Part shown: piece by piece, positions 1,780-38,745 of the stretch
Numbering within the stretch: the stretch's first letter is position 1
Layout of the letters: the number at the start of each line of letters is the position of its first letter
IMG/VR virus record: IMGVR_UViG_3300027967_000093
Reading direction: 5' to 3' (one strand)
DNA from: a virus
Length of the DNA stretch: 64,000 nt
The notes under the pieces: model-generated
Told to the model about the DNA's origin: nothing
Seen by the model: only the letters and a program-made list of their open reading frames with translations
The model's database searches: none
Made by a program: the position numbers and the translations under genes

Positions 1780-2041
1780 CATGGAAGAGAAAGTTGATGA
1801 CAAGTGGTACGGTAAAAACTTTGACTGGTATGTCAAGTGGGCTGCAACTGTAATTATCTTGGTTTCGGTGACATTCCGTAATGCGGGTGTCGAGTTCCGA
1901 CATTTCGACCTGTCCTTCGGTTTACTCGGTACCTTGCTTTGGTTATGGGTATCGGTGATGTGGAAAGACCGTGCACTGATTATTTTGAATGCGGTAATGA
2001 CACTTTTATTAGGGTCAGCACTAATAAAGGAGTTTGTGTGA
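1772..2041 (+). CDS. small multi-pass membrane protein (DUF6552-like)
   Basis: DWYVKWAAT...WKDRALIILN; three hydrophobic helices; start may be ATG 1781. Confidence 0.6.
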   Translation: MSNMEEKVDDKWYGKNFDWYVKWAATVIILVSVTFRNAGVEFRHFDLSFGLLGTLLWLWVSVMWKDRALIILNAVMTLLLGSALIKEFV

Positions 2042-3636
2042 CATTGAGTCCTCTTGATATTCATGGGATTATTAACAATACCCCCGATACAGAATTAACG
2101 TTAACTATCAAAAAACCTAGTGGGAACTTCAAACAGTTAACCTGCTGGGTCAATGATGTTTTAGAAATAAGTCCGGAGACGACAACTATACCTTGCAAGG
2201 ATAAGTCGATAGTGACTTTTCTTAACTGTGTGTTACGTCTATCGGTAACTCTCCAGAATGCAGTAGGAGTCCCTACTTTCAAGATACCCATGGTTACCGA
2301 GGTTACTGACCTAGGTGATTCCATCGAGGTTGAACTGATACAATACCGTCTGTCTGGTTTTATGCCAGAAACCTTCACTGGTTCTCTTCAACATGCCATC
2401 TCGATATGTCACAAATCATTAACAACCGAACCTACTGATAATAACATCTTATCATTGATGTCACATATAGAGTCTAAGGTAATACCTGATATACGTATCA
2501 TGGTCGCATATTCAAATGCAACTGTTCCTGTAATCAAGGCTGCGGGAGAACGTGGAATACCCTTTGTATGTCTAGGTAAGGGTATCTACCAACTAGGTAC
2601 AGGAAGTTCTCAGAGACGTATTAAAGGCAGTATGTCCGACCGTGATTCTAGTATTGGTGTTGATATTGCAGGGGATAAGTTTGTTGCGTCAAGTACATTA
2701 CGGAACATGGGATTCCCTACACCCGAGCATTATATGGTGACTCGTCTAGAACATGCACTAGGGGTAGTAGAAGACTTGGGATACCCTGTGGTGGTCAAAC
2801 CTGTAGATGGTGACCGTGGGGAAGGTGTGACTATTAATGTGGACAATGATGCCATGTTACGTGGTGCAGTCCAGAAGGGTATGAATGCGTCTATCAGTAA
2901 AGTTCTGTTGATAGAAAAACCTGTCGAAGGTGTGTGTCATCGACTCTTTATCACCAATGGAAAAATGGTCTATGCGGTAAAACGTGACCCTATTTACGTG
3001 GTAGGTAATGGTGTCGATACTATATTATCCCTTAATGAGAAAGAAAAAACTCGTCAAGATAAACGTCCGGTCTGGAATCGCGAACCCTTTGCACACTTTG
3101 ACTATACTACCGAACTGCATCTACAACTCACGGGTATGGATGGTCAGACTGTACCTGCCGAGGGTGAAGTGGTTTATCTAAGAGCCATAGAGTCTACCCA
3201 AGATGGTGGTATAGATGAGGATATGACCAAGAAGATTCATCCTGACAATATTGATATGGCGATACGCGCAACCAAAGTTTTGGGTCTGGATATTGCGGGT
3301 GTGGATATCATCGGAAAAGATTTGTCGGTACCATGGCACAAATCGGATATGGTGATTACTGACATCAATCCATCTCCTACATTCTGTGCGGCTAGTATCT
3401 CTCGTAGTTACCTACCCGAGTTCATCGATACCTATTTTGAAGGTGACTGTTGTATACCTGTCATACAAGAAGATGAAGTACTGAAAAACGTGGAGGAAGG
3501 TATTCGTTATGCAGTTCTTTCCGGTGAAAAGGTTACATGGAGTGACGGTAAAGAGTGGTACCATAAAGGTACTCATCAAGAACAACTGAGAATGTTGTTA
3601 CTCGACCCAACGTTCGATGCGTTGTTTATTGTATAA
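2038..3636 (+). CDS. cyanophycin synthetase-like ATP-grasp ligase (N + ATP-grasp domains, no full Mur-ligase domain)
   Basis: GTG 2038 with AAGGAG RBS; AAGERGIP...YQLGTGSSQRRI, IAGDK, GYPVVVKPVDGDRGEGVT, HRLFI, GLDIAGVDII, DINPSP. Confidence 0.75.
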   Translation: MTLSPLDIHGIINNTPDTELTLTIKKPSGNFKQLTCWVNDVLEISPETTTIPCKDKSIVTFLNCVLRLSVTLQNAVGVPTFKIPMVTEVTDLGDSIEVELIQYRLSGFMPETFTGSLQHAISICHKSLTTEPTDNNILSLMSHIESKVIPDIRIMVAYSNATVPVIKAAGERGIPFVCLGKGIYQLGTGSSQRRIKGSMSDRDSSIGVDIAGDKFVASSTLRNMGFPTPEHYMVTRLEHALGVVEDLGYPVVVKPVDGDRGEGVTINVDNDAMLRGAVQKGMNASISKVLLIEKPVEGVCHRLFITNGKMVYAVKRDPIYVVGNGVDTILSLNEKEKTRQDKRPVWNREPFAHFDYTTELHLQLTGMDGQTVPAEGEVVYLRAIESTQDGGIDEDMTKKIHPDNIDMAIRATKVLGLDIAGVDIIGKDLSVPWHKSDMVITDINPSPTFCAASISRSYLPEFIDTYFEGDCCIPVIQEDEVLKNVEEGIRYAVLSGEKVTWSDGKEWYHKGTHQEQLRMLLLDPTFDALFIV

Positions 3637-5086: not shown

Positions 5087-5761
5087 ATGTTTGAACATGT
5101 TCCGGTCGAATTGACCGAGATGGAAGCAGTGACCACCGATAGTGGCCGCAAATACAAAACCCCCGAAGGTGTCAACCTTCCCTCTATCACTACAGTCCTT
5201 TCGATTCTGTCACGTGACAGTATTGCCAAGTGGCGTAAACGTGTAGGTGAGGAAGAGGCGAATCGTGTCTCTTATCGTGCATCTACTCGTGGTACCTCGG
5301 TTCACGAAATCTGTGAGAAGTATGTTAACAATGACCCCAACTTCAAAGAGGGTTACACACCTGACATTATTGGTTCTTTCCTTGATTTGAAACCAATACT
5401 TGATGAACGTTTGACTAAGGTCTTCGCACAAGAAGCCCCACTATACTCCAATCATTTGGGTGTTGCGGGTCGTGTGGATTGCGTGGGTATCTTTGATGGT
5501 AAACCGTCAATCATCGATTACAAAACTTCGATGAAACCTAAACGTCTTGACTGGATTAAGAACTACTTCATGCAAGAAGCTGCGTATGCAATCATGTGGG
5601 AAGAACGTACTGGTCAACCTATCACTCAGTTGGTTACCATAATCTCGGTTGATAACAATGAACCTCAAGTGTTTATCGAACATCGAGACAACTGGGTACG
5701 ACCCCTAATCGAAACTATTGCACAATATAATGAGGAAAATTCTACTTCCCTTTTTGTATAA
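5087..5761 (+). CDS. PD-(D/E)xK exonuclease (Cas4-like, conserved in T4-like phages)
   Basis: PSITTVL, RGTSVHEICE, AGRVDCV, IIDYKTS, YFMQEAAYA; ATG 5087 more likely than TTG 5048. Confidence 0.8.
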   Translation: MFEHVPVELTEMEAVTTDSGRKYKTPEGVNLPSITTVLSILSRDSIAKWRKRVGEEEANRVSYRASTRGTSVHEICEKYVNNDPNFKEGYTPDIIGSFLDLKPILDERLTKVFAQEAPLYSNHLGVAGRVDCVGIFDGKPSIIDYKTSMKPKRLDWIKNYFMQEAAYAIMWEERTGQPITQLVTIISVDNNEPQVFIEHRDNWVRPLIETIAQYNEENSTSLFV

Positions 5762-5764
5762 ATA
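5757..5764 (+). promoter_or_regulatory. T4-type late promoter
   Basis: TATAAATA before ORF 5804. Confidence 0.7.
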
Positions 5765-5803: not shown

Positions 5804-7105
5804 ATGATAGGGTTCAAAACTTTTTTATCGGAGGCATCTTTGACCTTCGGAGAAATCACTCGTGAGGATAGACCTGACCGAATAGAATTATTTCTCCGAA
5901 AGTATAAAGGTAATGAACCCTTTGAGTTGGTCGGTGGTGACCAAGTAGTCTTTAAGTACAATGCAGAGATTGAGAAAGCTGTTAAATCAGGAAACTCTAA
6001 ACTCGCACAGTCAATTGGACTCGAAACCCTAGATGGAACTAAACTCGCATTCGGTAAGTTATCTAAGACTGCCGAGTTCGGGGGTGGTCGTGGTTCGGGT
6101 GGTGGTGCAGCCAACACTCGTGCAACTGAATCTGCACAATGTGTTTATCTACAAGCAATCTGGGATAACCGGACAACTAAATTCTCTGCGGATGATATAC
6201 GTAACGCATATCCCAAAACGCATACAGATGCGTCTCTAGATGAAGTTCTTCTGGCTGATGAAGGATGGATCTCCTCTTCCATTACTGCCGCAAAAATTCT
6301 ACATAAAGCTCTAGGTAAAAAACAATACAGTTTCCATCGTGGATCTGGTTGGGTTGAGATATTAGAGAAGAAGTTTAAAGAGTTGAATCGCATCGAGAAA
6401 GCATTCGGTAATGTCAACAAATGGTCTCCTGCGGACATCTACATGGTCGCAAAGGGTGCAGAGAACATGTATGATATAGAGGGTGCAAAGTCTCTGGAAT
6501 ACCTGAACAACGAATTGATGAAGGCATACACTGCACGTGATATCATTGGTGTGTCGTTGAAGAAGGTAATAGGTAACAAGGTCAGACTGTCTCAAGTTAA
6601 CTATAAGAAACCATTCAAAGGTGCGAAGTTCACCAAGTCATCTTATGGTAAGAAAGATTTCTTCAAGTCCAAAGATGGTTACCTGTTTGGTGCCGGTGGT
6701 ATTGAGATGCAGTTCCGAACCTTCCCTACCTTCCAGTGCGAGATTATCGGTAAAGCTGCTAAACATGGTAAGGTATCTCATGGTGGTATTGATGCGGCTC
6801 TATATGCAACAACTCGTGATAAGACCGAGAATCGTAAGGATCTTGAGTCGTCCATCAAGAAAGATAGGGATGCGTTCCTAGACAAATTCTATGGATTCTA
6901 TGATGGTGCAGTAGATAGTCCGGTAGACAAGGAAACTTTTAAAAAGAATCTGGAAGGTAAGACAACAGAATGGTTAGTCTCTAAGTACTATGTGACTTCT
7001 ATTTTCATAATGATACAAGGTCGCGAACAACAATTCATGGATTATTTATTCCGTGTAGCAAAGTCACAATCACCGCTATCTGCGGTACACTTAAAGGTAA
7101 GTTAA
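5804..7105 (+). CDS. putative internal head protein with restriction-endonuclease-like (PD-(D/E)xK) motifs
   Basis: N-term MIGFKTFLSEA; ESAQC...NKWSPADIYM...IIGVSLKK. Confidence 0.55.
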   Translation: MIGFKTFLSEASLTFGEITREDRPDRIELFLRKYKGNEPFELVGGDQVVFKYNAEIEKAVKSGNSKLAQSIGLETLDGTKLAFGKLSKTAEFGGGRGSGGGAANTRATESAQCVYLQAIWDNRTTKFSADDIRNAYPKTHTDASLDEVLLADEGWISSSITAAKILHKALGKKQYSFHRGSGWVEILEKKFKELNRIEKAFGNVNKWSPADIYMVAKGAENMYDIEGAKSLEYLNNELMKAYTARDIIGVSLKKVIGNKVRLSQVNYKKPFKGAKFTKSSYGKKDFFKSKDGYLFGAGGIEMQFRTFPTFQCEIIGKAAKHGKVSHGGIDAALYATTRDKTENRKDLESSIKKDRDAFLDKFYGFYDGAVDSPVDKETFKKNLEGKTTEWLVSKYYVTSIFIMIQGREQQFMDYLFRVAKSQSPLSAVHLKVS

Positions 7106-7106
7106 A

Positions 7107-8441
7107 ATGGCACAAATTAAAGGCGCGCAGGGAAAGTTTCATGAAACTACTGCACTAGTAAATAGACACGGCACGTTGGTAGATAGTGGCAATCCTTTAC
7201 CTATTGTTGGCACTACAGAAAACCCTTGGGGCAAACAAGTTCTTCTAGTCGATGACGATACTGTTCAACACACTTCTAAGAATAGACGTAAAGTTTCTAC
7301 ATATGAAGTGACAGACTTCAACACATTTACATACGGAAAAGACGTAGATATTTGGGACGAACTCGTTGTTGGTACAGGTTCTTCTACCCATGATCCGTAT
7401 CTCGGTATGGTTGAATTAGAGGTTGGTTCGGATTCTGGAGATTCGATCATTCGACAAACCGCACGTATCCAGAGATATTTACCAGGCCGTGCTAATGAAG
7501 TTTCTATGTCTGTAATTTTTGGATCTCAGACATCGGGTATTCGTAAAAGATTCGGTGTATTCGATGATGACAAAGGTGCATACTTTGAAGATGATGGTGA
7601 TGACCTTTATTGTGTATTGAGAAGAGATACTGCCGGTGGAGAAGACGAAGAACGTTATTCTCGTGCAAATTGGTCTGTTGATAAGTTGGATGGTACTGGG
7701 CCGAGTGGTATCACATTAGATCTTTCTAAAATTCAATTAATGGTAATTGAGTACGAGTGGTATGGTGCAGGACAGGTTGAGTGGAAGTTTGTTATTGACA
7801 ACAATGCAATTTCTATTCATAAGATAGATCACGCTAATACTCATGACCACACTTGGGCATCACGTGGTGCACTTCCAGTTCGCATAGAATTGACAAATGT
7901 TGATGGTATTGCGGGAACTCACTCCGTGTATCAGGGTTCTCATTCATTCCTTACTGAAGGAACAACTACTCTTCTCGGAAGACAAAAAAGTATTTCTTCG
8001 GCAATTACAGGAAAATCCCTCACATCTGCTAATACTTTTTATCCTATTGTTGCGATACGACTCAAGGCAGACGCACTAAACTCTGTCGTACTACCCGATG
8101 AATATTCTGGTGCTACATTAGATAACTCAAGTATGTTTATCAGAGCAATCGAAGATGCTACTGTTACTGGCGGCACTTGGGTTTCATACGACTCTGATTC
8201 TCCTATTGAATATAATATCACCGCTACTGGTTATACCAACGGTAATATTTTAGGAACAACATATGTTTCTAGTGGTAACATGGGACAGAAAGTTGAATTT
8301 CCTGAAAGGTCGATTACTCAACTTGCCAGAAAGACCACAACAACACTAGGTGATACTACAACCACGTTCCTGATTGCTGTTGCTTCAACGGGTTCAAACA
8401 AGACGGGTTGGGCAGATCTGGGTTGGATTGAGGTAAGATAA
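7107..8441 (+). CDS. putative virion structural protein (beta-rich)
   Basis: RYLPGR, RFGVFDDDKGAYFE, IEYEWYGAGQV, LPVRIE; T/S/G-rich. Confidence 0.55.
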   Translation: MAQIKGAQGKFHETTALVNRHGTLVDSGNPLPIVGTTENPWGKQVLLVDDDTVQHTSKNRRKVSTYEVTDFNTFTYGKDVDIWDELVVGTGSSTHDPYLGMVELEVGSDSGDSIIRQTARIQRYLPGRANEVSMSVIFGSQTSGIRKRFGVFDDDKGAYFEDDGDDLYCVLRRDTAGGEDEERYSRANWSVDKLDGTGPSGITLDLSKIQLMVIEYEWYGAGQVEWKFVIDNNAISIHKIDHANTHDHTWASRGALPVRIELTNVDGIAGTHSVYQGSHSFLTEGTTTLLGRQKSISSAITGKSLTSANTFYPIVAIRLKADALNSVVLPDEYSGATLDNSSMFIRAIEDATVTGGTWVSYDSDSPIEYNITATGYTNGNILGTTYVSSGNMGQKVEFPERSITQLARKTTTTLGDTTTTFLIAVASTGSNKTGWADLGWIEVR

Positions 8442-9661
8442 TGAAATTTAAAGAATTTATCACAGAACAAAAGAACACCCACATGACGCATATCGAAGAT
8501 AAAGTCATTTACGGGGGTGTGAATGGTACACGGCAAGCAATCCTTGCACTGCGAGAATTGCGTGATATGTTGTCCGGTAAACACAGCGGAAAAGTCTCGG
8601 TAAAATGGGATGGTGCGCCTGCAATCTTCTGTGGACAAGACCCACGGGACGGTGAGTTCTTTGTTGCGAAGAAAGGTATATTTAATAAGAACCCAAAGGT
8701 ATATAAAACTAATGCAGAAATTGAAGAAGACACTTCGGGAGACCTTGCGGACAAACTTAAAGACGCTCTTAAATATCTACCAAGTCTTGGTATTAAAGGT
8801 GTTATTCAGGGCGACTTTCTTTTTGGTCGAGGTGATGTACAGACTAAGACAATCGATGGACAAAAATATGTAACGTTCCATCCTAATACAATTGTGTATG
8901 CAGTACCGGAAGAACAGGCGCAATCAGTTAAGGCTGCAAAAATCGGTATAGTGTGGCACACTACATATACTGGTAGTTCTTTTGAGACGATGAAGGCATC
9001 CTATGGTGTTGATGTATCGAAACTTAAAAAGTCTACTACTGTATGGTCACAAGATGCAATGCTTCGTGATTTATCTAACGCAACAATGACAACTAAAGAA
9101 ACGGAGAAAGTGAATGAATATCTTTCGCAAGCTGGTAAACTTTTTAACCAAATTAGTGGGACGACCCTCAGAACCCTCGAAGGAAACCCCACCCTCGCCC
9201 AAACCATCGAAACCTACGGAAACACCAAAGTCCGCAAAGGCGAAGTCATCGGCAACTCGAAAACCCACGTCAAAGGTCTCATCAAATACATCAACGACAA
9301 GTACCAAAAAGAAATCGACAAGCGCAAAACCGAAAAGGGTAAGCAAGCCCAAGAAACCAAACGCGAAGAAATAATGTCGTTCTTTTCACCTGCAAATCGA
9401 GCATCTCTAGAAAAGATGTTCGAATTGCAAAAAATGATAGTTCTTGCAAAGTTAACTCTTATAAATAAACTTAACAGTTTAAAAGATATTGACACTTTTG
9501 TTAAAACCAAAACTGGTTATAAAGTAACTGGTGAAGAAGGTTATGTGGCAATAGATAAACTTGGTGGTGATGCGGTGAAACTTGTTGACCGTATGGAATT
9601 CTCATACAACAACTTTTCACCCGATATATTAAAAGGCTGGGACACACCTAGTCGTACTTAA
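8441..9661 (+). CDS. DUF6267-like protein with ATP-dependent ligase motifs; putative internal head protein
   Basis: MKFKEFITEQ; HMTHIED; KWDG (motif I), IQGDF (III), EGYV (IV), VKLV (V). Confidence 0.7.
   Translation: MKFKEFITEQKNTHMTHIEDKVIYGGVNGTRQAILALRELRDMLSGKHSGKVSVKWDGAPAIFCGQDPRDGEFFVAKKGIFNKNPKVYKTNAEIEEDTSGDLADKLKDALKYLPSLGIKGVIQGDFLFGRGDVQTKTIDGQKYVTFHPNTIVYAVPEEQAQSVKAAKIGIVWHTTYTGSSFETMKASYGVDVSKLKKSTTVWSQDAMLRDLSNATMTTKETEKVNEYLSQAGKLFNQISGTTLRTLEGNPTLAQTIETYGNTKVRKGEVIGNSKTHVKGLIKYINDKYQKEIDKRKTEKGKQAQETKREEIMSFFSPANRASLEKMFELQKMIVLAKLTLINKLNSLKDIDTFVKTKTGYKVTGEEGYVAIDKLGGDAVKLVDRMEFSYNNFSPDILKGWDTPSRT
9114..9374 (+). CDS. nested (+1 frame) small protein: amphipathic N-terminus plus P/S/T/K-rich basic tail
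   Basis: GGAG 9103-9106, ATG 9114; only 2 of 71 host-gene codons (9161-9373) end in T versus about 40% in a flanking sample. Confidence 0.7.
   Translation: MNIFRKLVNFLTKLVGRPSEPSKETPPSPKPSKPTETPKSAKAKSSATRKPTSKVSSNTSTTSTKKKSTSAKPKRVSKPKKPNAKK
9460..9467 (+). promoter_or_regulatory. internal T4-type late promoter
   Basis: TATAAATA about 220 nt upstream of ORF 9686. Confidence 0.5.
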
Positions 9662-9685
9662 TGGGATAAACCAGAGGAAATAGAA

Positions 9686-10081
9686 GTGGCAAAGAAACCG
9701 CTTAGATTCAAAGAATTCGACTCCGTTGATACCAACGAAGAAGTCGCGCAAGAGGCATTGACCGTACAACAACGTATGGCGAAGTCTCGTCAGATGAAGA
9801 AACTTGCACCCAAAATCGCAATCGGCCGCAAACGCGCTGCCCGTAAGATGGCGAATATGGATACCATCAAAAAACGTGCACGTAAAGCCGCACGTAATAT
9901 TATCCTAAAGAAACTAACTAAAGATATCCCCAAAGACGAGTTGTCAATGTCTCGCAGACAGGACATTGAGAAAAGACTAGATAAGATGAAACCTAAGATT
10001 GACAAACTCGCACAGAAAATGTTACCGAAGGTTCGTAAGAAAGAACTTGAACGTAAAAAAGGGGGCCCAAGTGCCGATTAA
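9686..10081 (+). CDS. conserved basic protein, putative internal head/DNA-binding protein
   Basis: GTG with GAGG RBS; LRFKEF...QEALTVQQRMAKSRQMKK; very K/R-rich. Confidence 0.7.
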   Translation: MAKKPLRFKEFDSVDTNEEVAQEALTVQQRMAKSRQMKKLAPKIAIGRKRAARKMANMDTIKKRARKAARNIILKKLTKDIPKDELSMSRRQDIEKRLDKMKPKIDKLAQKMLPKVRKKELERKKGGPSAD

Positions 10082-11891
10082 GAATTTTTCCCAATACCTC
10101 ATCGAAGAGGAAAGGGAGGTTTATTTTACCTTTGGTAGAATGAACCCACCTACTATTGGGCATGGGAAAGTGATGGATACTCTTGCAGCGAAGTCTGGTA
10201 AGAGTGATTATAAAGTATATCTGTCACACTCACAGAATCCCAAGAAAGACCCACTGTCCTATGTGGAGAAAGTGAAACACACTCGTAAAATGTTTCCAAA
10301 ACATGCACGTCAAGTAATGTTAGATAAGGATGTCAAGTCCGTATTTGATATTGCAGTAAAACTATATGACCAAGGTTATACTAAGATTAATATGGTTGTT
10401 GGTGCAGACCGTATACGTGAGTTCGATGTATTGTTGAATAAGTACAACGGTACAAAGGCACGTCATGGTTTCTACAATTTCAAAAAGATTAATGTCATAT
10501 CTGCGGGTGAACGTGACCCCGATGCAACTGGTGTCGAGGGTATGTCCGCGTCTAAACAACGTGCGAATGCAGAGAAAAATGATTTTGTTACCTTTGCACA
10601 GGGTGTACCAAAAGGTATGTCCAACAAAGATACACGTGCACTATTCAATGATGTACGTAAAGGTATGGGACTCAAGGAAGAAAGAGAATTTAAAAACCAC
10701 ATCGAACTAGAAACTGTTTCTGAAACAAGAGAACAGTACGTGTCAGGTGAACTGTACAATGTAGGTGATTTGGTAGTAATCAAAGAAAGTGACGAGGTTG
10801 GTACTGTATTAGTCCTTGGTGCTAACTATGTAATTGTAGAAACGGCCAACGGTAAGTTACGTAAATGGTTAGATGCTGTAGACCTACTAGAGAAACAAGA
10901 CTCAGATATCAAAGATCGTGAAGGTACACAACCTGCACGTTATCACTCTGGACTGAAGAAGTCCACCAAAGTTGCACGTGATGCACACTTCAAGAAACAC
11001 GGTAAGAAAGCAGACGATGATGCATCTGCATACAAACCTGCTCCTGGCGATGCAACTGCACAGACCAAACCTTCTAAGTACACCAAACAGTTCAAAGATA
11101 TGTACGAAGAAGTCTCTCAGAAACAACTCAATGACCTTGAGAAGTTTGGTGACAGACTCCTTGCAAAGTATGATATCGATATAGAATTCACACGTCACTT
11201 CGCTGACCGTATGAACGACTCTCGTAACAAACCTGAGATTAAGGTCACTGAACTACAGAAGTTGTTCAAAAAGATTGCAAAAGAAAAAGGTCGGAACATC
11301 AAAAAACATGGTGATTCAGAGGCAGTCCTGAAGGATATGCAGTCTGACCTTAACTTACCTGTAGTAATCAACTACAAGAACGGTGAGTTTGAAGTTATTA
11401 ACAAAACAATAATGCGCAAGAAAGACTTTAAGACTACTAGTCCTGAAGTTAAGTACGAGTCTGTCGAACAGATTGACGAGTTACTTGGAAGATATATCGA
11501 TAATCTCGAAGGCCCATTGGCGGGTCGTTTCTGGGATAAGATTATTAACGCAGATGTGTACAAGACAGTTATCGCAACCTTCAGAAAAGAACTTCAAAAA
11601 AGTTCTGCGGGTCAAAGAAACAAATTAGGATTTATGTCAGATATCGCACGTAGGTATGGCGCGAATGGTCGTAGTGCGGCAGAGATATTCCACAAGTTAA
11701 TCAAGAAAGGTGTTATTCCCGAGAAGGAAGCGTTCTATCCAAACTTCAGTATGAAGGAAGAACTTGATCCGGTTAAGACTGCACGTGATGCAATCGAACG
11801 TGAGAAAGAGTCTGATAAGAAGAAACACGATTCTATTCTAGACCGTGCAAGACTTGCACGTGCAAAACAAAAGAATAGGAAAACTAAATGA
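10071..11891 (+). CDS. cytidylyltransferase-like (HIGH superfamily) nucleotidyltransferase, multidomain polyprotein
   Basis: GTG 10071 (MPIKNFSQYLIEEE); FTFGRMNPPTIGH, VVGADR, SAGERDPD, MSASKQR; followed by several extra modules. Confidence 0.8.
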   Translation: MPIKNFSQYLIEEEREVYFTFGRMNPPTIGHGKVMDTLAAKSGKSDYKVYLSHSQNPKKDPLSYVEKVKHTRKMFPKHARQVMLDKDVKSVFDIAVKLYDQGYTKINMVVGADRIREFDVLLNKYNGTKARHGFYNFKKINVISAGERDPDATGVEGMSASKQRANAEKNDFVTFAQGVPKGMSNKDTRALFNDVRKGMGLKEEREFKNHIELETVSETREQYVSGELYNVGDLVVIKESDEVGTVLVLGANYVIVETANGKLRKWLDAVDLLEKQDSDIKDREGTQPARYHSGLKKSTKVARDAHFKKHGKKADDDASAYKPAPGDATAQTKPSKYTKQFKDMYEEVSQKQLNDLEKFGDRLLAKYDIDIEFTRHFADRMNDSRNKPEIKVTELQKLFKKIAKEKGRNIKKHGDSEAVLKDMQSDLNLPVVINYKNGEFEVINKTIMRKKDFKTTSPEVKYESVEQIDELLGRYIDNLEGPLAGRFWDKIINADVYKTVIATFRKELQKSSAGQRNKLGFMSDIARRYGANGRSAAEIFHKLIKKGVIPEKEAFYPNFSMKEELDPVKTARDAIEREKESDKKKHDSILDRARLARAKQKNRKTK

Positions 11892-12154
11892 TTAATTTCA
11901 AAAAATACCTTGCCGAAGCACGTTATTCAATGTATGATGTAATAGATGAAGAGGGTGAAGGACTTGCTGGTAAAGCGAAGAAGTCTGGTATCTCGGTAGA
12001 TACATTGAGAAAAGTTTATAACCGTGGTGTTGCGGCATGGAAGACGGGACACCGTCCAGGCACTACTCCACAGCAATGGGGATATGCGAGAGTAAACGCA
12101 TTCATCGTTAAAAAGAAAAAAGGCAATTTAAACCACGATAAGGATCTTGCATAA
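11888..12154 (+). CDS. DUF5824-like protein, putative internal head protein
   Basis: MINFKKYLAEA; LRKVYNRGVAAWKTGHRPGTTPQQWGYARVN. Confidence 0.7.
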   Translation: MINFKKYLAEARYSMYDVIDEEGEGLAGKAKKSGISVDTLRKVYNRGVAAWKTGHRPGTTPQQWGYARVNAFIVKKKKGNLNHDKDLA

Positions 12155-13297
12155 ATGAAGTCGTTTCAAGAATTACGTGAGAAGTCAGTCTCACAAGCCC
12201 AACAAAAGATGATGGGTATGGCACTCGCATACAAACGTGGTGAGATGGACGATGTGTCACCCGAAGTCAAGAAGATGGCGGACTCTATGTCTACCAAAGA
12301 CCTCGAAGACTTCGCAAAGACCAAACACAAAGGCCTGCCTGATCGAAAAGAATCAGTCGAACTTGACGAAGCAGTTAAAACGAGAGTTTATAAAAGTGGA
12401 AAGTATTGGCTTGTTGATGTATCAAGTTCTAAGATTGACTACACTGATTGGGGCCCTACTGGCAGAGGTTTTGCTAATGAAAAGGATGCTCAAGAATTTG
12501 CCAAACACATGCAAAAATCTGTAAAAGAATCTGTTTCAGAAGGTGCGATGTCTGACTTCCATCTGATGGTTAAAGAGAAGGTACCTGCTGCGAAGATTGC
12601 TAAGGAACTTGGACTTGACCTCAAGACCGTGAAGAAACTGATGAAAGATATGAAGGAATCAGTAGACCTCGAAGAAGGTAAACTACCTCCGCATCTAGCG
12701 AAGTTCTTTGATAAGAAAGGTGAATTAAAACCTGAAGTTCTTGACCGTCTAAAGAAAAGTAAAAAGGGTCATGAATTTCTGATGGGTAAAGATGTTGCAC
12801 CTAAAGGTTATGGTGTAAAAGAAGAAGTTGAACTTGACGAAGCAATGCGCGGTGGTAATGCTAAAACTTTCAAAACATTAGAAGATTGGTTAATGGCGGT
12901 TCTTGATATTAAAGGCACAACTGTATCTAAAATGGGTAATACATTAAGAGTTAACGGTTTAGGTCGTACACAATCTGCTACGTTTGAATTGAAGAAAGGT
13001 CGTGGTTCTTTACTAGAAGCACGTAAAGACTCATCTGCCGATTTGTATTTCAAGACTTACTCTGCCGCAGTACAACACGCAAAATCACAAGCAGAGAAGA
13101 AAGGTTTCGAAGTTGTCGAAGACGATTGGTTCAATCAAGTAACTACGGGTAAGGGTAAACCAGGCCGTGGTAAGACTACACGTCATACACTGAAGTTGAC
13201 TAAGAACGGTAAACCTGTACGTCAAGGTCTGTCGATTCAAGTCTACAACCGTGACACTGATACGAACCCATACGAACTTAACTTCTACGTGAGTTAA
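12155..13297 (+). CDS. modular polyprotein (DUF3008-like N-terminal module), putative internal head protein
   Basis: MKSFQELREK; SQAQQKMMGMAL...DLEDFAKTKHKGLP; repeated linkers KESVELDEA/KESVSEG/KESVDLEEG/KEEVELDEA. Confidence 0.7.
   Translation: MKSFQELREKSVSQAQQKMMGMALAYKRGEMDDVSPEVKKMADSMSTKDLEDFAKTKHKGLPDRKESVELDEAVKTRVYKSGKYWLVDVSSSKIDYTDWGPTGRGFANEKDAQEFAKHMQKSVKESVSEGAMSDFHLMVKEKVPAAKIAKELGLDLKTVKKLMKDMKESVDLEEGKLPPHLAKFFDKKGELKPEVLDRLKKSKKGHEFLMGKDVAPKGYGVKEEVELDEAMRGGNAKTFKTLEDWLMAVLDIKGTTVSKMGNTLRVNGLGRTQSATFELKKGRGSLLEARKDSSADLYFKTYSAAVQHAKSQAEKKGFEVVEDDWFNQVTTGKGKPGRGKTTRHTLKLTKNGKPVRQGLSIQVYNRDTDTNPYELNFYVS
12359..12844 (+). repeat. 15-nt direct repeat GAACTTGACGAAGCA encoding the ELDEA linker (12359-12373 and 12830-12844)
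   Basis: identical 15-mers flank internal modules. Confidence 0.7.
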
Positions 13298-13298
13298 T

Positions 13299-13649
13299 AT
13301 GAAAACTTTTAATCACTACAATGAGATAGACGAACATTGCGAATGTAATGATTTGTACGAAGACTTAGAATTAACAGAGTCCGAGTATCAAGGAAAGAAA
13401 GTCACGTTGAACAATCCCATTCGTACATCCGAGAACCCCAACAAGAAGTTCAAGGTGTACGTTAAGAATGAATCTGGTAAGGTTGTTGTGGTTAGGTTTG
13501 GTGACCCTAATATGGATATTAAGAGAGACGACCCCAATAGACGTAAGTCATTCCGAGCAAGGCACAACTGTGCGAATCCCGGCCCCAAATGGAAAGCAAG
13601 ATACTGGTCTTGTTACCAATGGCGCGCAGGTTCTAAAGTCGATAACTAA
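13299..13649 (+). CDS. conserved viral protein (DUF6321/DUF5754-like)
   Basis: KKFKVYVKN...VRFGDPNM...RRKSFRARHNC...ARYWSC. Confidence 0.7.
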   Translation: MKTFNHYNEIDEHCECNDLYEDLELTESEYQGKKVTLNNPIRTSENPNKKFKVYVKNESGKVVVVRFGDPNMDIKRDDPNRRKSFRARHNCANPGPKWKARYWSCYQWRAGSKVDN

Positions 13650-13657
13650 TATAAATA
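13650..13657 (+). promoter_or_regulatory. T4-type late promoter
   Basis: TATAAATA. Confidence 0.65.
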
Positions 13658-13670
13658 AATGGGGTAACTG

Positions 13671-13946
13671 ATGGCCAGCGATGACCACCGATTAGATAGA
13701 ATTGAAGAGAAGATAGATAAACTATCCGAAGCAATGGTATCTCTCGCAAGAACAGAGGAAAAGATATTATCTATGGAACAAAACCATAGAAATCATTATG
13801 AGAGAATGAATCGATTCTCTGAGAAACTCGATGCTATCGAGACTAAGGTTAATGAGAATGCACATACTGTGTCTATTATTAATCGTGTAACTGTAATAGG
13901 TGTTGCCGCAGTGATTGGCGCCATCATAAAAATGTTTTGGTTTTAA
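13671..13946 (+). CDS. coiled-coil protein with C-terminal TM helix
   Basis: RLDRIEEKIDKL heptads; VTVIGVAAVIGAII. Confidence 0.7.
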   Translation: MASDDHRLDRIEEKIDKLSEAMVSLARTEEKILSMEQNHRNHYERMNRFSEKLDAIETKVNENAHTVSIINRVTVIGVAAVIGAIIKMFWF

Positions 13947-13970
13947 CAATAACAACGGAGACTAGACAAT

Positions 13971-14750
13971 ATGTCTGATTTAAAGAAAACAGCGGAGGCA
14001 TATTTGCAAATGGTCTCTGAGAAAAAAGAAGTCGTATGTGAGAAGTGTGGTGAAGTCCACGAAGGTTCTTGCATGGACGAGAAGAAAGAACTCGACCCTG
14101 TAAATGATGCAGAGAACGATAAGAAGTTTAAAGACCGTAAAGACAAAGACATCGATAACGATGGAGATGTTGATTCTTCGGACGAGTTCCTGCACAAGAA
14201 ACGTGCCGCAACTGATGACGCGATTGACGGTGGTAAGAAACCTGCCAAGAACGTGAAGGAAGAGAAGGACGAAGAGGAAGAACCTAAGAAGAAAATGCCA
14301 CCCAAGAAAGATGGTGATGCAGACGAAGGTGAAACCGAAGCAGAAAAAGAAGACGATGACGCCGAAGCAGTTGAAGCAGACGGTGAAGGTGATGCAGAGA
14401 AACCTGTTAAGAAGAAAAAGAAGACTGATGAAAATCCTAAGACTTCTGACTCTACCGCAGAGATTTCTAAGATTGAATCTGTAAACGCCCGTGAAGCATT
14501 CATTGCGATGTGGTCTGAAATTGAAGAAGCTGTCAGGAGCAATCAGAAGAAAGGTGCAACTGAACCTGAGAAGATTGACTCTAAGGCATCTGGTAAAGAA
14601 AAAGAGTTTGTTGCAAAACATCCTGTTGACGCTAAAGACCACGATGAACTAGAAAAGGTTGAAGAACCTAAAGAACGCACAGTGAAGAAAGAGATGGCAG
14701 AGTTCGAAGTAATTCGTGCATTGTTGTCAGGAAAACCCACCGGAGAATAA
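13971..14750 (+). CDS. highly charged low-complexity protein (scaffold/internal-protein-like) with DxDxDG loop
   Basis: GGAG RBS; DIDNDGDVDSSDE; E/K/D-rich. Confidence 0.7.
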   Translation: MSDLKKTAEAYLQMVSEKKEVVCEKCGEVHEGSCMDEKKELDPVNDAENDKKFKDRKDKDIDNDGDVDSSDEFLHKKRAATDDAIDGGKKPAKNVKEEKDEEEEPKKKMPPKKDGDADEGETEAEKEDDDAEAVEADGEGDAEKPVKKKKKTDENPKTSDSTAEISKIESVNAREAFIAMWSEIEEAVRSNQKKGATEPEKIDSKASGKEKEFVAKHPVDAKDHDELEKVEEPKERTVKKEMAEFEVIRALLSGKPTGE

Positions 14751-16371: not shown

Positions 16372-16970
16372 TGGGTATTTTAAAATCAGCAGCAGACCTC
16401 GTATATACGATACGATTTCTGAAACTACTCGTAACACCTTTTGATAAGACAGAGGCGTTCAAGGCGGGTATCATCGATGAAGATGGACAAAGGAATAAAG
16501 AGTTCGACCGTAATAGTGCGGACGACCGTGAAGCATATCGTTCACACTACACACCATTCCACCGTCTTGTTTTCAATATAAAACGTCTTATGGCGAAAGT
16601 TCCTGGCGGTCAATCTGTGGTTGCAAGATATGGTGCGGCTCTTGCACTAATCAAAGAACACGGTGAACTGTCAGATAAGAACCTAATGAAGATTCACGCC
16701 GAGACTGGTATCGATATCCTAGACTGTCTTGCAGAACAATCTCAGTGGTTCATGTTAGAAGGTAATCAATTGTCGCCAGGCGTGTACCGTATGCGCAATG
16801 AATCCATCACTACAGAGTGTGACGAGGTTATCTTTAAAGGTGACCAGATACGTATCACCGAAGAAAATTCTCTTCCCCGTGATGAAGTTTTAGGTCTAAG
16901 TGTGTACGAAGCAGTACATATTAAGACTCAAAAAAGACTATATATTACTACAGCTGAAATAACTAAATGA
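16371..16970 (+). CDS. conserved T4-like phage protein
   Basis: DLVYTIRFLKLLVTPF..T.AFKAGIIDEDG...FHRLVFNIKRL. Confidence 0.75.
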   Translation: MGILKSAADLVYTIRFLKLLVTPFDKTEAFKAGIIDEDGQRNKEFDRNSADDREAYRSHYTPFHRLVFNIKRLMAKVPGGQSVVARYGAALALIKEHGELSDKNLMKIHAETGIDILDCLAEQSQWFMLEGNQLSPGVYRMRNESITTECDEVIFKGDQIRITEENSLPRDEVLGLSVYEAVHIKTQKRLYITTAEITK

Positions 16971-17551
16971 GTTTAGAACAGGAATATAAGACACTATTTC
17001 CAAATTTCAAACGAGGAATAGAAGGTCATTGTCTACTCACTGATGTTACCATTGAGTACGCAAAAGATATTCAAAGTATAGTCCAACCAAAGAACATGTT
17101 GGAAATTGGGTTTAATGCAGGTCACAGTGCATTTATGTGGTTGTCTCTATTTCCCGAGTTGAATTTCCATTCGGTCGATATATGTGAACACCCATATACC
17201 CTAGACCATATGAAAAAGTTAAAAGAAGTTTTTGGTGATAGATTTACGTATGGTAAAGGTGACTCCAAGAAACTAAACCGAGACTTTGTTAGTCAGTTTG
17301 ACTTGGTGTTTATTGACGGAGACCATACTAGAGAGGGTGTCACCAGTGACTATGAGTTGTGTCGTAGTGCAGGAACACCTTGGATTCTCATAGATGATTA
17401 TAATAATTTACGAGTACCAAGGAATTTATGTAACCACATAAGTTCTTCGGAAAACCATCCCTACACAGAAATAGGGAAATTCAAATACGATGACGCTACT
17501 CTAAAGACCGTAGCAGTACTGTTTAAAAGGAACGACAATGAAACCGTTTAA
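16967..17551 (+). CDS. class I SAM-dependent methyltransferase (Methyltransf_24-like)
   Basis: LEIGFNAGHSA, SVDI, GDS, FDLVFIDGDH, ILIDD. Confidence 0.8.
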   Translation: MSLEQEYKTLFPNFKRGIEGHCLLTDVTIEYAKDIQSIVQPKNMLEIGFNAGHSAFMWLSLFPELNFHSVDICEHPYTLDHMKKLKEVFGDRFTYGKGDSKKLNRDFVSQFDLVFIDGDHTREGVTSDYELCRSAGTPWILIDDYNNLRVPRNLCNHISSSENHPYTEIGKFKYDDATLKTVAVLFKRNDNETV

Positions 17552-17711
17552 GAAGTTTGTTGATGAAATGACAGGAACCTCTGCGGTTGCAGGTGCAGGC
17601 GATGACTCTGAGACAGTCGTGATGCGCAAGAAATACGACAAGAAGAACAAACGTAAAGACCAAATTGATGTACTCAAAAGAATAATGGGTAATCCCTCCA
17701 AAAAGTCTTGA
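17538..17711 (+). CDS. 57-aa protein not in ORF track (MKPFKKFVDEMTGTSAVAGAGDD...), putative internal head protein
   Basis: AAGG RBS; capsid-targeting-like N-terminus; basic C-terminus. Confidence 0.65.
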   Translation: MKPFKKFVDEMTGTSAVAGAGDDSETVVMRKKYDKKNKRKDQIDVLKRIMGNPSKKS

Positions 17712-36266: not shown

Positions 36267-36415
36267 TGCCTACTTTAGATGATGTAAAAGTTGTATTGGA
36301 AAAGTTTGGTGGATTTATAAGTGACACTGCATACGATTTTAAACAATGCTGGTCAGTATATCCTAATGTATTAATTTGGTGTGGTGTCGCAATCTTAATT
36401 GCTTATTTTGTATAA
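36266..36415 (+). CDS. 49-aa protein with C-terminal TM
   Basis: GGAG RBS, TAATG coupling; PNVLIWCGVAILIAYFV. Confidence 0.55.
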   Translation: MPTLDDVKVVLEKFGGFISDTAYDFKQCWSVYPNVLIWCGVAILIAYFV

Positions 36416-36418
36416 ATA
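36411..36418 (+). promoter_or_regulatory. T4-type late promoter
   Basis: TATAAATA. Confidence 0.7.
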
Positions 36419-36450: not shown

Positions 36451-37323
36451 ATGCAGTCATTCAACTCATTCTTAAAAGAAGAGGCATTCCTCGCAGAAGA
36501 GTCGAGTATACTTTTAGAGAAACTCATTACATTTGGTGGTGAGGCATATCCAAAGTTCGGTAACATTGTTATCATGGCCGGTGGTGCGGGTTCTGGTAAA
36601 GGGTTCATTCTGAGTAATCTGGTTGGTATCGAAGGAAAGACTTTCGATGTGGATGTACTGAAGACTCTTGCATCTAAGACTCCTGCTATTCAGAAACGAG
36701 TCAAGGATGAACTCGGTGTAGATATTCTTAAATTGTCACAGAACCTAAAAGACCCCGAGAACGTTGGTAAACTTCATGACATCATTGGTAACTACCTAAA
36801 GACTGATAAGAACAAAGAGAAGTTATTCTATCGTTCTGTATTGACCGCACCTGCTGACCGCAAACCAAACATCATCTTCGACATGACCTTCAAGGAATTG
36901 TCTAAGTTGGAGAAGGTTGCGAATGATGCGTCTAAGTTGGGTTACGACAAGAAGAACATCCATATCGTATGGGTTGTGAATGATATCGAAGTTGCGAAGG
37001 CACAGAACTTAAAACGTGCACGTGTTGTACCTACCGAGATTCTTGTTAACACTCACCGTGGTGCGGCTAATACTATGGGTGACATCATCAACATGGGTAA
37101 CAAACTCAAGAAGTATATGGATGGGGACATCGTGTTCGCATTCAACAAAGTTGGTGTAGATGCGAGTCTAGCTAAGTCTGGTAAGGGTGGTTCATACGTC
37201 AAAGACGCAAACTACTTCTATGTCAAGAGAGCAGGTAAGTCACCTACTCCCGTTGACAAACTAGATAAAGAGATTCGTTCTAAGATTGCAGGTTACGTAC
37301 CTAAGAACGTAGACTGGAATTAA
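36451..37323 (+). CDS. P-loop kinase (zeta-toxin/Pnk-like), putative internal head protein
   Basis: MQSFNSFLKEE; MAGGAGSGKG; IIFDMT; NLKRARVVP. Confidence 0.7.
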   Translation: MQSFNSFLKEEAFLAEESSILLEKLITFGGEAYPKFGNIVIMAGGAGSGKGFILSNLVGIEGKTFDVDVLKTLASKTPAIQKRVKDELGVDILKLSQNLKDPENVGKLHDIIGNYLKTDKNKEKLFYRSVLTAPADRKPNIIFDMTFKELSKLEKVANDASKLGYDKKNIHIVWVVNDIEVAKAQNLKRARVVPTEILVNTHRGAANTMGDIINMGNKLKKYMDGDIVFAFNKVGVDASLAKSGKGGSYVKDANYFYVKRAGKSPTPVDKLDKEIRSKIAGYVPKNVDWN

Positions 37324-38503: not shown

Positions 38504-38532
38504 TTGCCAACTCCCTAGATATGAGGTACAAT
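38504..38532 (+). promoter_or_regulatory. sigma70-type promoter, divergent from late promoter
   Basis: TTGCCA-N17-TACAAT. Confidence 0.6.
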
Positions 38533-38556
38533 GTTTACATAACTGAGGAGAATATC

Positions 38557-38745
38557 ATGTCTGCAATAGGTACTTTAATATTAGAAGTTCAAGAGTTCGT
38601 AGACCCGTTGGTCTACATGGGTGCAACAAACGAAACTATTATGCAACAGTTCGATGAATTGTATTCTGGTCATCCACACTACCAGTATATGCGAAACATC
38701 ATCGAAACCCAAATAACAAGTCGACAATTTCTTAGGGAAGGTTAA
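38557..38745 (+). CDS. hypothetical protein
   Basis: GAGGAG RBS; MSAIGTLILEVQE. Confidence 0.65.
   Translation: MSAIGTLILEVQEFVDPLVYMGATNETIMQQFDELYSGHPHYQYMRNIIETQITSRQFLREG

Follow-up and report, generated by a model that had tools for sequence, protein, structure and literature searches.

The window analysed here, a 64,000 nucleotide stretch of viral DNA (IMG/VR record IMGVR_UViG_3300027967_000093), is part of the genome of a T4-like marine myovirus, with homologues of gp32, gp2, gp48/54, gp26 and gp29 alongside baseplate genes, nrdA/B and a carbamoyltransferase gene. The feature under study is a leader of about ten residues at the N-termini of a set of otherwise unrelated gene products, most of which are encoded in a cluster beginning at position 5804, and which resembles the capsid targeting sequence (CTS) of the T4 internal proteins. 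No close cultured relative of this phage was found, as a near-identity DNA search of phage records returned only one 200 bp match, and the proteins of the window share 25-45% identity with their cyanomyophage homologues. Among isolates, phage C48C1 (Kyanoviridae, 156 kb) is the nearest, with a DUF6267 protein that is 72% identical to that of the window. Metagenomic relatives are very numerous, being found on contigs of approximately 145-150 kb, and the DUF6267 protein itself has thousands of metagenomic relatives.

All the genes and promoters of the cluster lie on the forward strand. A T4-type late promoter box (TATAAATA, 5757-5764) is found 40 nt before the start of a gene for a basic protein of 433 residues (5804-7105; isoelectric point (pI) 9.3) that matches no known fold and begins with the leader MIGFKTFLSE-A, where the hyphen precedes the residue following the leader glutamate. 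Next are an acidic, leaderless protein of 444 residues (7107-8441), which matches the 'virion structural protein' family phrog_1645 (PHROG, 2e-110), and a DUF6267 protein (8441-9661; pI 9.3; Pfam, 1e-106) with the leader MKFKEFITE-Q, a putative RNA-ligase-like covalent nucleotidyltransferase. A second copy of the box (9460-9467) falls inside the end of this gene, 226 nt before the GTG start codon of a gene for a very basic 131-residue protein with a degenerate leader (9686-10081; pI 10.7; phrog_23027). This is followed by a second GTG-initiated gene, which encodes a 606-residue putative nucleotidyltransferase with a HIGH motif (here TIGH) and DUF5824 (10071-11891; pI 9.5), identified by Pfam, PHROG and motif matches, with the leader MPIKNFSQYLIE-E.

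The remainder of the cluster comprises an 88-residue basic DUF5824 protein (11888-12154; Pfam match) with the strict leader MINFKKYLAE-A; a 380-residue basic protein with an N-terminal DUF3008 (12155-13297; Pfam match) and the short leader MKSFQELRE-K; and a 116-residue basic, cysteine-rich protein with a weak DUF5754 match in Pfam (13299-13649), in which the leader MKTFNHYNE is degenerate. A further box (13650-13657) precedes position 13671, and an acidic 259-residue protein (13971-14750; pI 4.8) is a doubtful member of the set. Two carriers are encoded further downstream: a 57-residue basic protein with the strict leader MKPFKKFVDE-M (17538-17711; pI 9.9), and a basic 290-residue protein (36451-37323; leader MQSFNSFLKE-E), predicted from Pfam and its Walker A sequence to be P-loop kinase-like (Zeta_toxin/AAA_33), with a box at 36411-36418 lying 33 nt before its start. 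The small leader gene at 17538 overlaps the end of a gene just upstream for a Methyltransf_24-family methyltransferase (16967-17551; 2e-13). Elsewhere in the window, a 565-residue open reading frame (ORF) at 1939-3636 on the forward strand has a weak PHROG match to a RimK-type glutaminyl transferase and nothing else.

The leader was sought at the starts of called ORFs with the strict pattern ^M.{0,5}[FY]..[FYL][LIV].E, i.e. M-x(0-5)-[FY]-x-x-[FYL]-[LIV]-x-E, and an expected count was derived from the rate at which the same core occurs inside proteins. Six called ORFs of the window open with this motif (5804, 8441, 10071, 11888, 36451 and 38521), against 0.07 expected; the gene at 17538 also fits, the ORF caller having taken an antisense frame there, such that the total is six to seven. 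The match at 38521-38745 (forward strand; MRYNVYITEE) belongs to an acidic ORF of 74 residues (pI 4.6), unlike the other carriers, which are basic; no obvious ribosome-binding site or late box precedes it on its strand, and this match may be due to chance. In the complete genome of C48C1, all six true strict matches are inside the syntenic cluster, and one spurious match arises from an internal GTG elsewhere.

Conservation of the motif was assessed in 80 metagenomic relatives from IMG/VR. It is retained by 76/76 orthologues of the 10071 protein, 57/80 of 8441, 32/41 of 11888 and 14/21 of 5804, while none of the orthologues of five neighbouring control genes carries it (0/26, 0/41, 0/33, 0/33 and 0/16). 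Looser versions of the pattern match often in any genome (12 times in T4 and seven in S-PM2) and were too noisy to use, which is the one observation that could favour the similarity of these N-termini being a product of chance or compositional bias. This explanation is contradicted by the excess of strict matches, by their confinement to a single locus in C48C1 and by the difference between orthologues and controls, and can be regarded as extremely improbable.

Every leader quoted in the initial annotation is present in the sequence at the position it gave, although the three looser variants it proposed differ in quality. That at 9686 (..PLRFKEFDSVD) keeps both aromatic residues (F..F) without an [LIV]xE, and that at 13299 is, like MKSFQELRE at 12155, a short or degenerate form of the leader. 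The full motif is present in several orthologues of both 12155 and 13299, those of the latter including MKKFKQYIDE and MKKFRDFINE. By contrast, the only motif at 13971 is distal (AYLQMVSE, residues 10-17), and this is not a convincing leader. The [LIV]-x-E that ends the leader is present in the products of 5804, 8441, 10071, 11888, 12155, 17538 and 36451, absent from that of 9686 and located three residues further along in that of 13299.

Several observations support the leader being a modular element under selection at the level of the protein. Across the 80 orthologues, the codons at the conserved positions vary synonymously (TTT or TTC for phenylalanine; ATA, ATC or ATT for isoleucine; GAA or GAG for glutamate), which implies selection on the peptide itself and was the basis for rejecting a signal in the nucleotide sequence, e.g. 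a translational operator. A Sec or Tat signal peptide was likewise rejected, as the leader carries charges and lacks a hydrophobic core. Among 150 representatives of DUF6267 clusters (37-70% identity), the strict leader is present on 43, in another 34 the domain itself (MxKNxHLxHLED) forms the N-terminus, and the linker from the leader glutamate to the domain is 3-10 residues long. Of 120 close homologues of the 36451 kinase-like protein, 110 have the leader with phenylalanine and the other ten have leucine at the first aromatic position, while some homologues of the 5804 protein have a spacer between MKSFKSF and the L-x-E, as in T4 IPI. The Pfam and PHROG profiles begin past the leader, with DUF6267 starting at residue 12 of the 8441 protein and phrog_5268 at residue 20 of that of 36451. 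In AlphaFold (AF2) models of the 8441 and 5804 proteins, with predicted local distance difference test (pLDDT) scores of 94 and 90 respectively, residues 1-9 are disordered in both, with scores below 50.

The late promoter box is itself enriched, with 14 copies in the window against 3.6 expected, a number reached by none of 100 shuffled sequences. It is found at all four positions where late promoters had been proposed (5757, 9460, 13650 and 36411), and baseplate genes are preceded by it as well; by their promoter sequences, the leader genes are putative late genes. The carriers are also distinguished by charge: a pI of 9.0 or above (9.0-10.7) is seen in every one of the nine leader proteins, compared with 12 of the 84 other ORFs (Fisher p = 3e-7), and in the same operon those proteins that lack the leader are acidic.

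The proteins that follow the leader appear to be of diverse kinds. In an alignment of 77 DUF6267 sequences (37-64% identity), the residues corresponding to K55, D57, E366, G367 and K380 of the 8441 protein are invariant and G58 is present in at least 90%; these match ligase motifs I (KxDG, containing the adenylated lysine), IV (EG) and V (K). The best alignments of the model, made with VIA-align, are with RNA ligases at Z scores of 7-8 over 170-200 residues, a moderate level of structural support: REL1 (Z 8.0 over 189 residues), Trl1 (Z 7.7 over 202), NgrRnl (Z 7.5), T4 Rnl2 (Z 7.0) and T4 Rnl1 (Z 6.9). Foldseek also ranks ligases top, but with an E value of only 0.2. The conserved motifs support the identification of this protein as a putative RNA-ligase-like covalent nucleotidyltransferase.

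Similarly, profile and motif matches support the 10071 protein being a HIGH-motif nucleotidyltransferase of the NMNAT/cytidylyltransferase-like type (PF01467 CTP_transf_like, 21.5 bits against a cut-off of 21; PHROG 'cytidyltransferase', 1e-69; TIGH at residue 28), and that of 36451 being a Zeta_toxin/AAA_33-type P-loop kinase-like protein (PF06414, 2e-7 and 31 bits against a cut-off of 22.3), the P-loop of which, GGAGSGKG, has a glycine where serine or threonine is usual. The genes at 9686, 11888, 13299 and 17538 encode small basic proteins. Searches of PDB sequences with the 5804, 8441, 10071 and 36451 proteins gave nothing useful, and NCBIfam yielded no match. Hence, of the enzyme folds originally suggested, the ligase, nucleotidyltransferase and kinase stand, whereas the nuclease does not: the proposal that 5804 encodes a PD-(D/E)xK nuclease was dropped, as its confident model has a best Z score of 3.8, and 3.1 with MspI (Foldseek and VIA-align), and the protein has no match in Pfam or NCBIfam.

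Two further features of these proteins were observed. In some phages, DUF6267 and cytidylyltransferase-like domains are fused in a single protein, as in phrog_455 (764 residues) and S-PM2 d138 (L086 7992-9767), and this fusion suggests that the ligase-like and cytidylyltransferase-like enzymes may work together. The 12155 protein contains ten [LIV]xE sites, with acidic linkers (VELDEA twice, DLEEG and LLEA) between small modules, although this number is not clearly above the expectation from composition, roughly estimated as six.

The properties of the T4 leader have been defined in some detail. The CTS of IPI, IPII and IPIII (Mullaney and Black 1996, as cited in the review PMC9026906) is removed by the prohead protease gp21, and capsid targeting depends on residues 4 and 7 of the IPIII leader, processing on residues 8 and 10 (PMC9026906); an aspartate at position 10 blocks cleavage while leaving targeting intact (PMC9026906). 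The positions conserved in the leaders of the window are exactly these four functional positions, those in between varying freely. When applied to the 274 called ORFs of T4, the strict pattern identifies only IPII and IPIII, which both start MKTYQEFIAE-A, and gp61.1, which starts MKTFKEFIKE. The start of IPI (MKTFKEFTSTTTPVSTITE-A) has the spacer form, MKTFKEF...ITE. The gp61.1 protein has 54 residues and its gene (NC_000866 18966-19130, reverse strand) adjoins the primase gene 61. Homology between the 17538 protein and gp61.1 was considered and rejected, as the leader alone aligns (E = 22).

Machinery of the type that acts on the T4 leader can be found in relatives of this phage. Three near-complete relatives (G001-G003) and C48C1 all encode a gp21-type Peptidase_S77 protease (PF03420, 1e-38 to 1e-42), in the gene order gp20, gp67-like, small ORF, gp21, gp22, gp23, and their gp23 proteins have GF[LM]TE at the site equivalent to that cut in T4 gp23. 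The small ORF between gp67 and gp21 encodes a basic protein starting MKTFEQIRE or MRTFKELRE, the same short form of the leader as is found on the 12155 protein, and in C48C1 it is preceded by the late promoter box. This ORF begins with GTG or TTG (C48C1, L087 14434-14631; G001, L084 10175-10393, reverse strand). Its annotation in the C48C1 record begins at an ATG further downstream, such that the leader is hidden, and for the cytidyltransferase of the same phage an internal start (MNPPTIGH) has similarly been chosen.

Published proteomic studies of cyanophages provide evidence on the location of homologous proteins. According to the sections of the S-SCSM1 report drawn on here, mass spectrometry of the virion identified 45 proteins, including an NMNAT (PMC9602691). 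In the S-SCSM1 sequence record, six genes of the syntenic block between mazG and primase/nrdA (ORF89, ORF90, ORF91, which is the NMNAT, ORF92, ORF93 and ORF97) are annotated 'virion protein'. ORF91 is 41% identical to the 10071 protein and starts MKSFLQFLKE-A; ORF90 is a homologue of the 5804 protein; ORF93 is a DUF3008-only protein resembling the N-terminus of that of 12155; and ORF92 has weak local similarity to the 13971 protein. The virion proteins of S-SZBM1 listed in Table 1 of its report, detected by liquid chromatography-mass spectrometry, include _140, a cytidylyltransferase, and _190 (PMC9146016). SSZBM1_140 is a homologue of the 10071 protein and starts MRFRQFIIE-A, while SSZBM1_190 is a homologue of that of 7107; SSZBM1_141, a leaderless DUF6267 protein encoded adjacent to _140, is nowhere mentioned in that report (PMC9146016). 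Published virion detections therefore cover homologues of four genes of the cluster, including leader-bearing nucleotidyltransferases. Apart from these two proteins, the leader is also found on Syn9 gp184, which starts MKKFSAFLSE-A.

Taken together, these data make it likely that the shared N-terminus is a T4-type CTS, a reading for which there is good support of an indirect kind and from homologues, and around nine unrelated basic proteins, including the ligase-like, nucleotidyltransferase and kinase-like proteins, are probably carried in the virus particle. The proposal of the initial annotation that CTS-like leaders mark proteins loaded into the head is supported in part, by the four functional positions, the modularity of the leader and selection on it, the late promoters and the presence of homologues in virions, with the protein encoded at 13971 being a doubtful member of the list.

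A number of observations weigh against this conclusion. The head module lies outside the window, and the protease has been seen only in relatives with DUF6267 proteins 72-75% identical to that of the window. The residue after the leader glutamate is variable (A, Q, E, K or M), whereas it is usually alanine in T4. The trait is patchy, as S-PM2 has no strict match other than its portal protein, and gp61.1 of T4 has a CTS-like N-terminus despite being encoded among replication genes and not being known to be packaged. The virion evidence concerns homologues in cyanophages outside the close clade of this phage; furthermore, the S-SCSM1 virion proteins ORF90, ORF92 and ORF93 have no clear leader, which implies that proteins of that phage can associate with the virion without it. 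In the sections of their report drawn on here, the S-SCSM1 authors also note that abundant non-structural proteins may survive caesium chloride purification (PMC9602691).

The cases of gp61.1 and of possible contamination by abundant proteins, the latter allowed for by the S-SCSM1 authors in those same sections, would also fit an N-terminus with a role unrelated to the capsid, such as docking onto a different late complex, signalling for stability or degradation, or assistance to the start of translation, with virion detection being a matter of carry-over. Codons for lysine, phenylalanine, asparagine and isoleucine are moreover AT-rich and common after start codons. Nevertheless, the conservation of amino acids despite synonymous codon variation is not what a signal at the nucleotide level would produce, the gp21 cleavage consensus stands at the end of the motif, and the pattern is specific in retrieving the T4 internal proteins. 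Homologues of the NMNAT-like protein have been found in the virions of three independent cyanophages, and in S-SZBM1 the leader-bearing protein was detected while its leaderless neighbour went unreported. A role unrelated to the capsid consequently seems quite improbable.

If the leader is indeed a CTS, the aromatic pair [FY]-x-x-[FYL] would allow each late protein, once synthesised, to dock onto the scaffolding core inside the prohead, and the [LIV]-x-E that follows would be the cut site of a gp21-type prohead protease, with the leader being removed during head maturation. The basic mature proteins would afterwards remain alongside the DNA inside the head. This cargo would consist of the DUF6267 enzyme, the NMNAT/cytidylyltransferase-like enzyme, the P-loop kinase-like protein, the 433-residue protein and several small, very basic proteins. 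Of these events, docking, cleavage after the glutamate, ejection with the DNA and early action in infection are inferred. In T4, the internal proteins are basic, are ejected and act in the host (PMC12373910).

An alternative that shares the first of these steps is that the leader targets proteins to the prohead in order for them to work inside the head, by condensing DNA, neutralising charge, forming an accessory part of the scaffold core or acting on packaged DNA, rather than as injected effectors. The strongly basic nature of all the leader proteins is consistent with this, as are the position of a leader-bearing small basic ORF among the prohead core genes (gp67-gp21) of relatives and the small size and lysine/arginine-rich composition of several cargo proteins, the extreme being that of 9686 at pI 10.7. 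The T4 internal proteins are equally basic, yet they are ejected and active in the host, and the conserved catalytic motifs of the ligase, HIGH nucleotidyltransferase and P-loop proteins are hard to explain if their function is purely structural. A role confined to the head thus appears unlikely, although it is the most credible of the alternatives.

If it is ejected, the cargo may constitute an injected arsenal acting in the first minutes of infection, in an anti-defence or host take-over role, as hypothesised at the outset. A more specific and quite speculative possibility, which we consider unlikely, is that abundant marine T4-like phages deliver the RNA-ligase-like protein, the NMNAT-like nucleotidyltransferase and the P-loop kinase with the DNA, and that these repair cleaved RNA or restore NAD+ before phage genes are expressed, so pre-empting abortive infection defences such as anticodon nucleases and NAD+-depleting systems. 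In that case, the leader would provide a simple key, at the level of sequence, to injected effectors across uncultured phages.

The CTS itself is already established, as is the use of the signal sequence to find internal proteins of T-even phages (PMC12373910). Three things look to be new: the spread of this label to a group of enzymes of marine Kyanoviridae-like phages, the fact that members of a single enzyme family may have or lack it, and its power to explain published virion detections. The cyanophage papers, in the sections drawn on here, note that NMNAT-like proteins have been detected recurrently in virions and make no mention of the leader or of a link to the T4 CTS (PMC9602691, PMC9146016); no paper linking the CTS to cyanophages was found, nor anything relevant on DUF6267 or C48C1. 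Should the leader be a genuine address label for the capsid, the proteins that are packaged, and probably injected, by a very abundant group of ocean phages could be listed from a pattern of ten residues. It would also explain the recurrence of NMNAT-like enzymes in the virion proteomes of cyanophages, a question to which the authors of those studies gave no answer, widen the concept of T4 internal proteins from small restriction inhibitors to whole enzymes, and supply natural tags with which foreign proteins could be loaded into the heads of marine phages.

Among the closest known counterparts of this cargo are the NMNAT/cytidylyltransferase-like virion proteins of S-SCSM1, S-SZBM1 and S-CBWM1 (PMC9602691, PMC9146016), which are homologues of the 10071 protein (34-41% identity) encoded at a syntenic locus, and which in S-SCSM1 and S-SZBM1 share the leader; the window protein differs in being longer, with added DUF5824-type modules. 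Giant phages such as SPN3US are alike, in those parts of the literature drawn on here, in having many head proteins cut by a prohead protease and a large load of ejection proteins, which bear propeptides, in the head. In T4, enzyme-sized cargo is represented by Alt, a large ADP-ribosyltransferase that is packaged in the head, has propeptides cut by gp21 and is ejected with the DNA (PMC9026906), whereas the cargo proposed here belongs to other enzyme families. As in the case of the T4 CTS, a leader of the form M-K-x-[FY]-x-x-F-[LIV]-x-E is borne by otherwise unrelated basic proteins of putative late genes, there are long-spacer variants resembling IPI, and the gp21 protease family is present in relatives. 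Cleavage and ejection are features of T4 and putative here, and the phage described is a marine Kyanoviridae-like myovirus rather than a Tequatrovirus. It further differs in having approximately nine carriers in a 64 kb window, rather than three as in T4, and in most of these being encoded together in a single late operon, with an exonuclease gene on one side and the nrd genes on the other. Finally, several of its carriers are predicted enzymes of 290-606 residues, in contrast to the 8-21 kDa inhibitors of GmrSD that bear the leader in T4.

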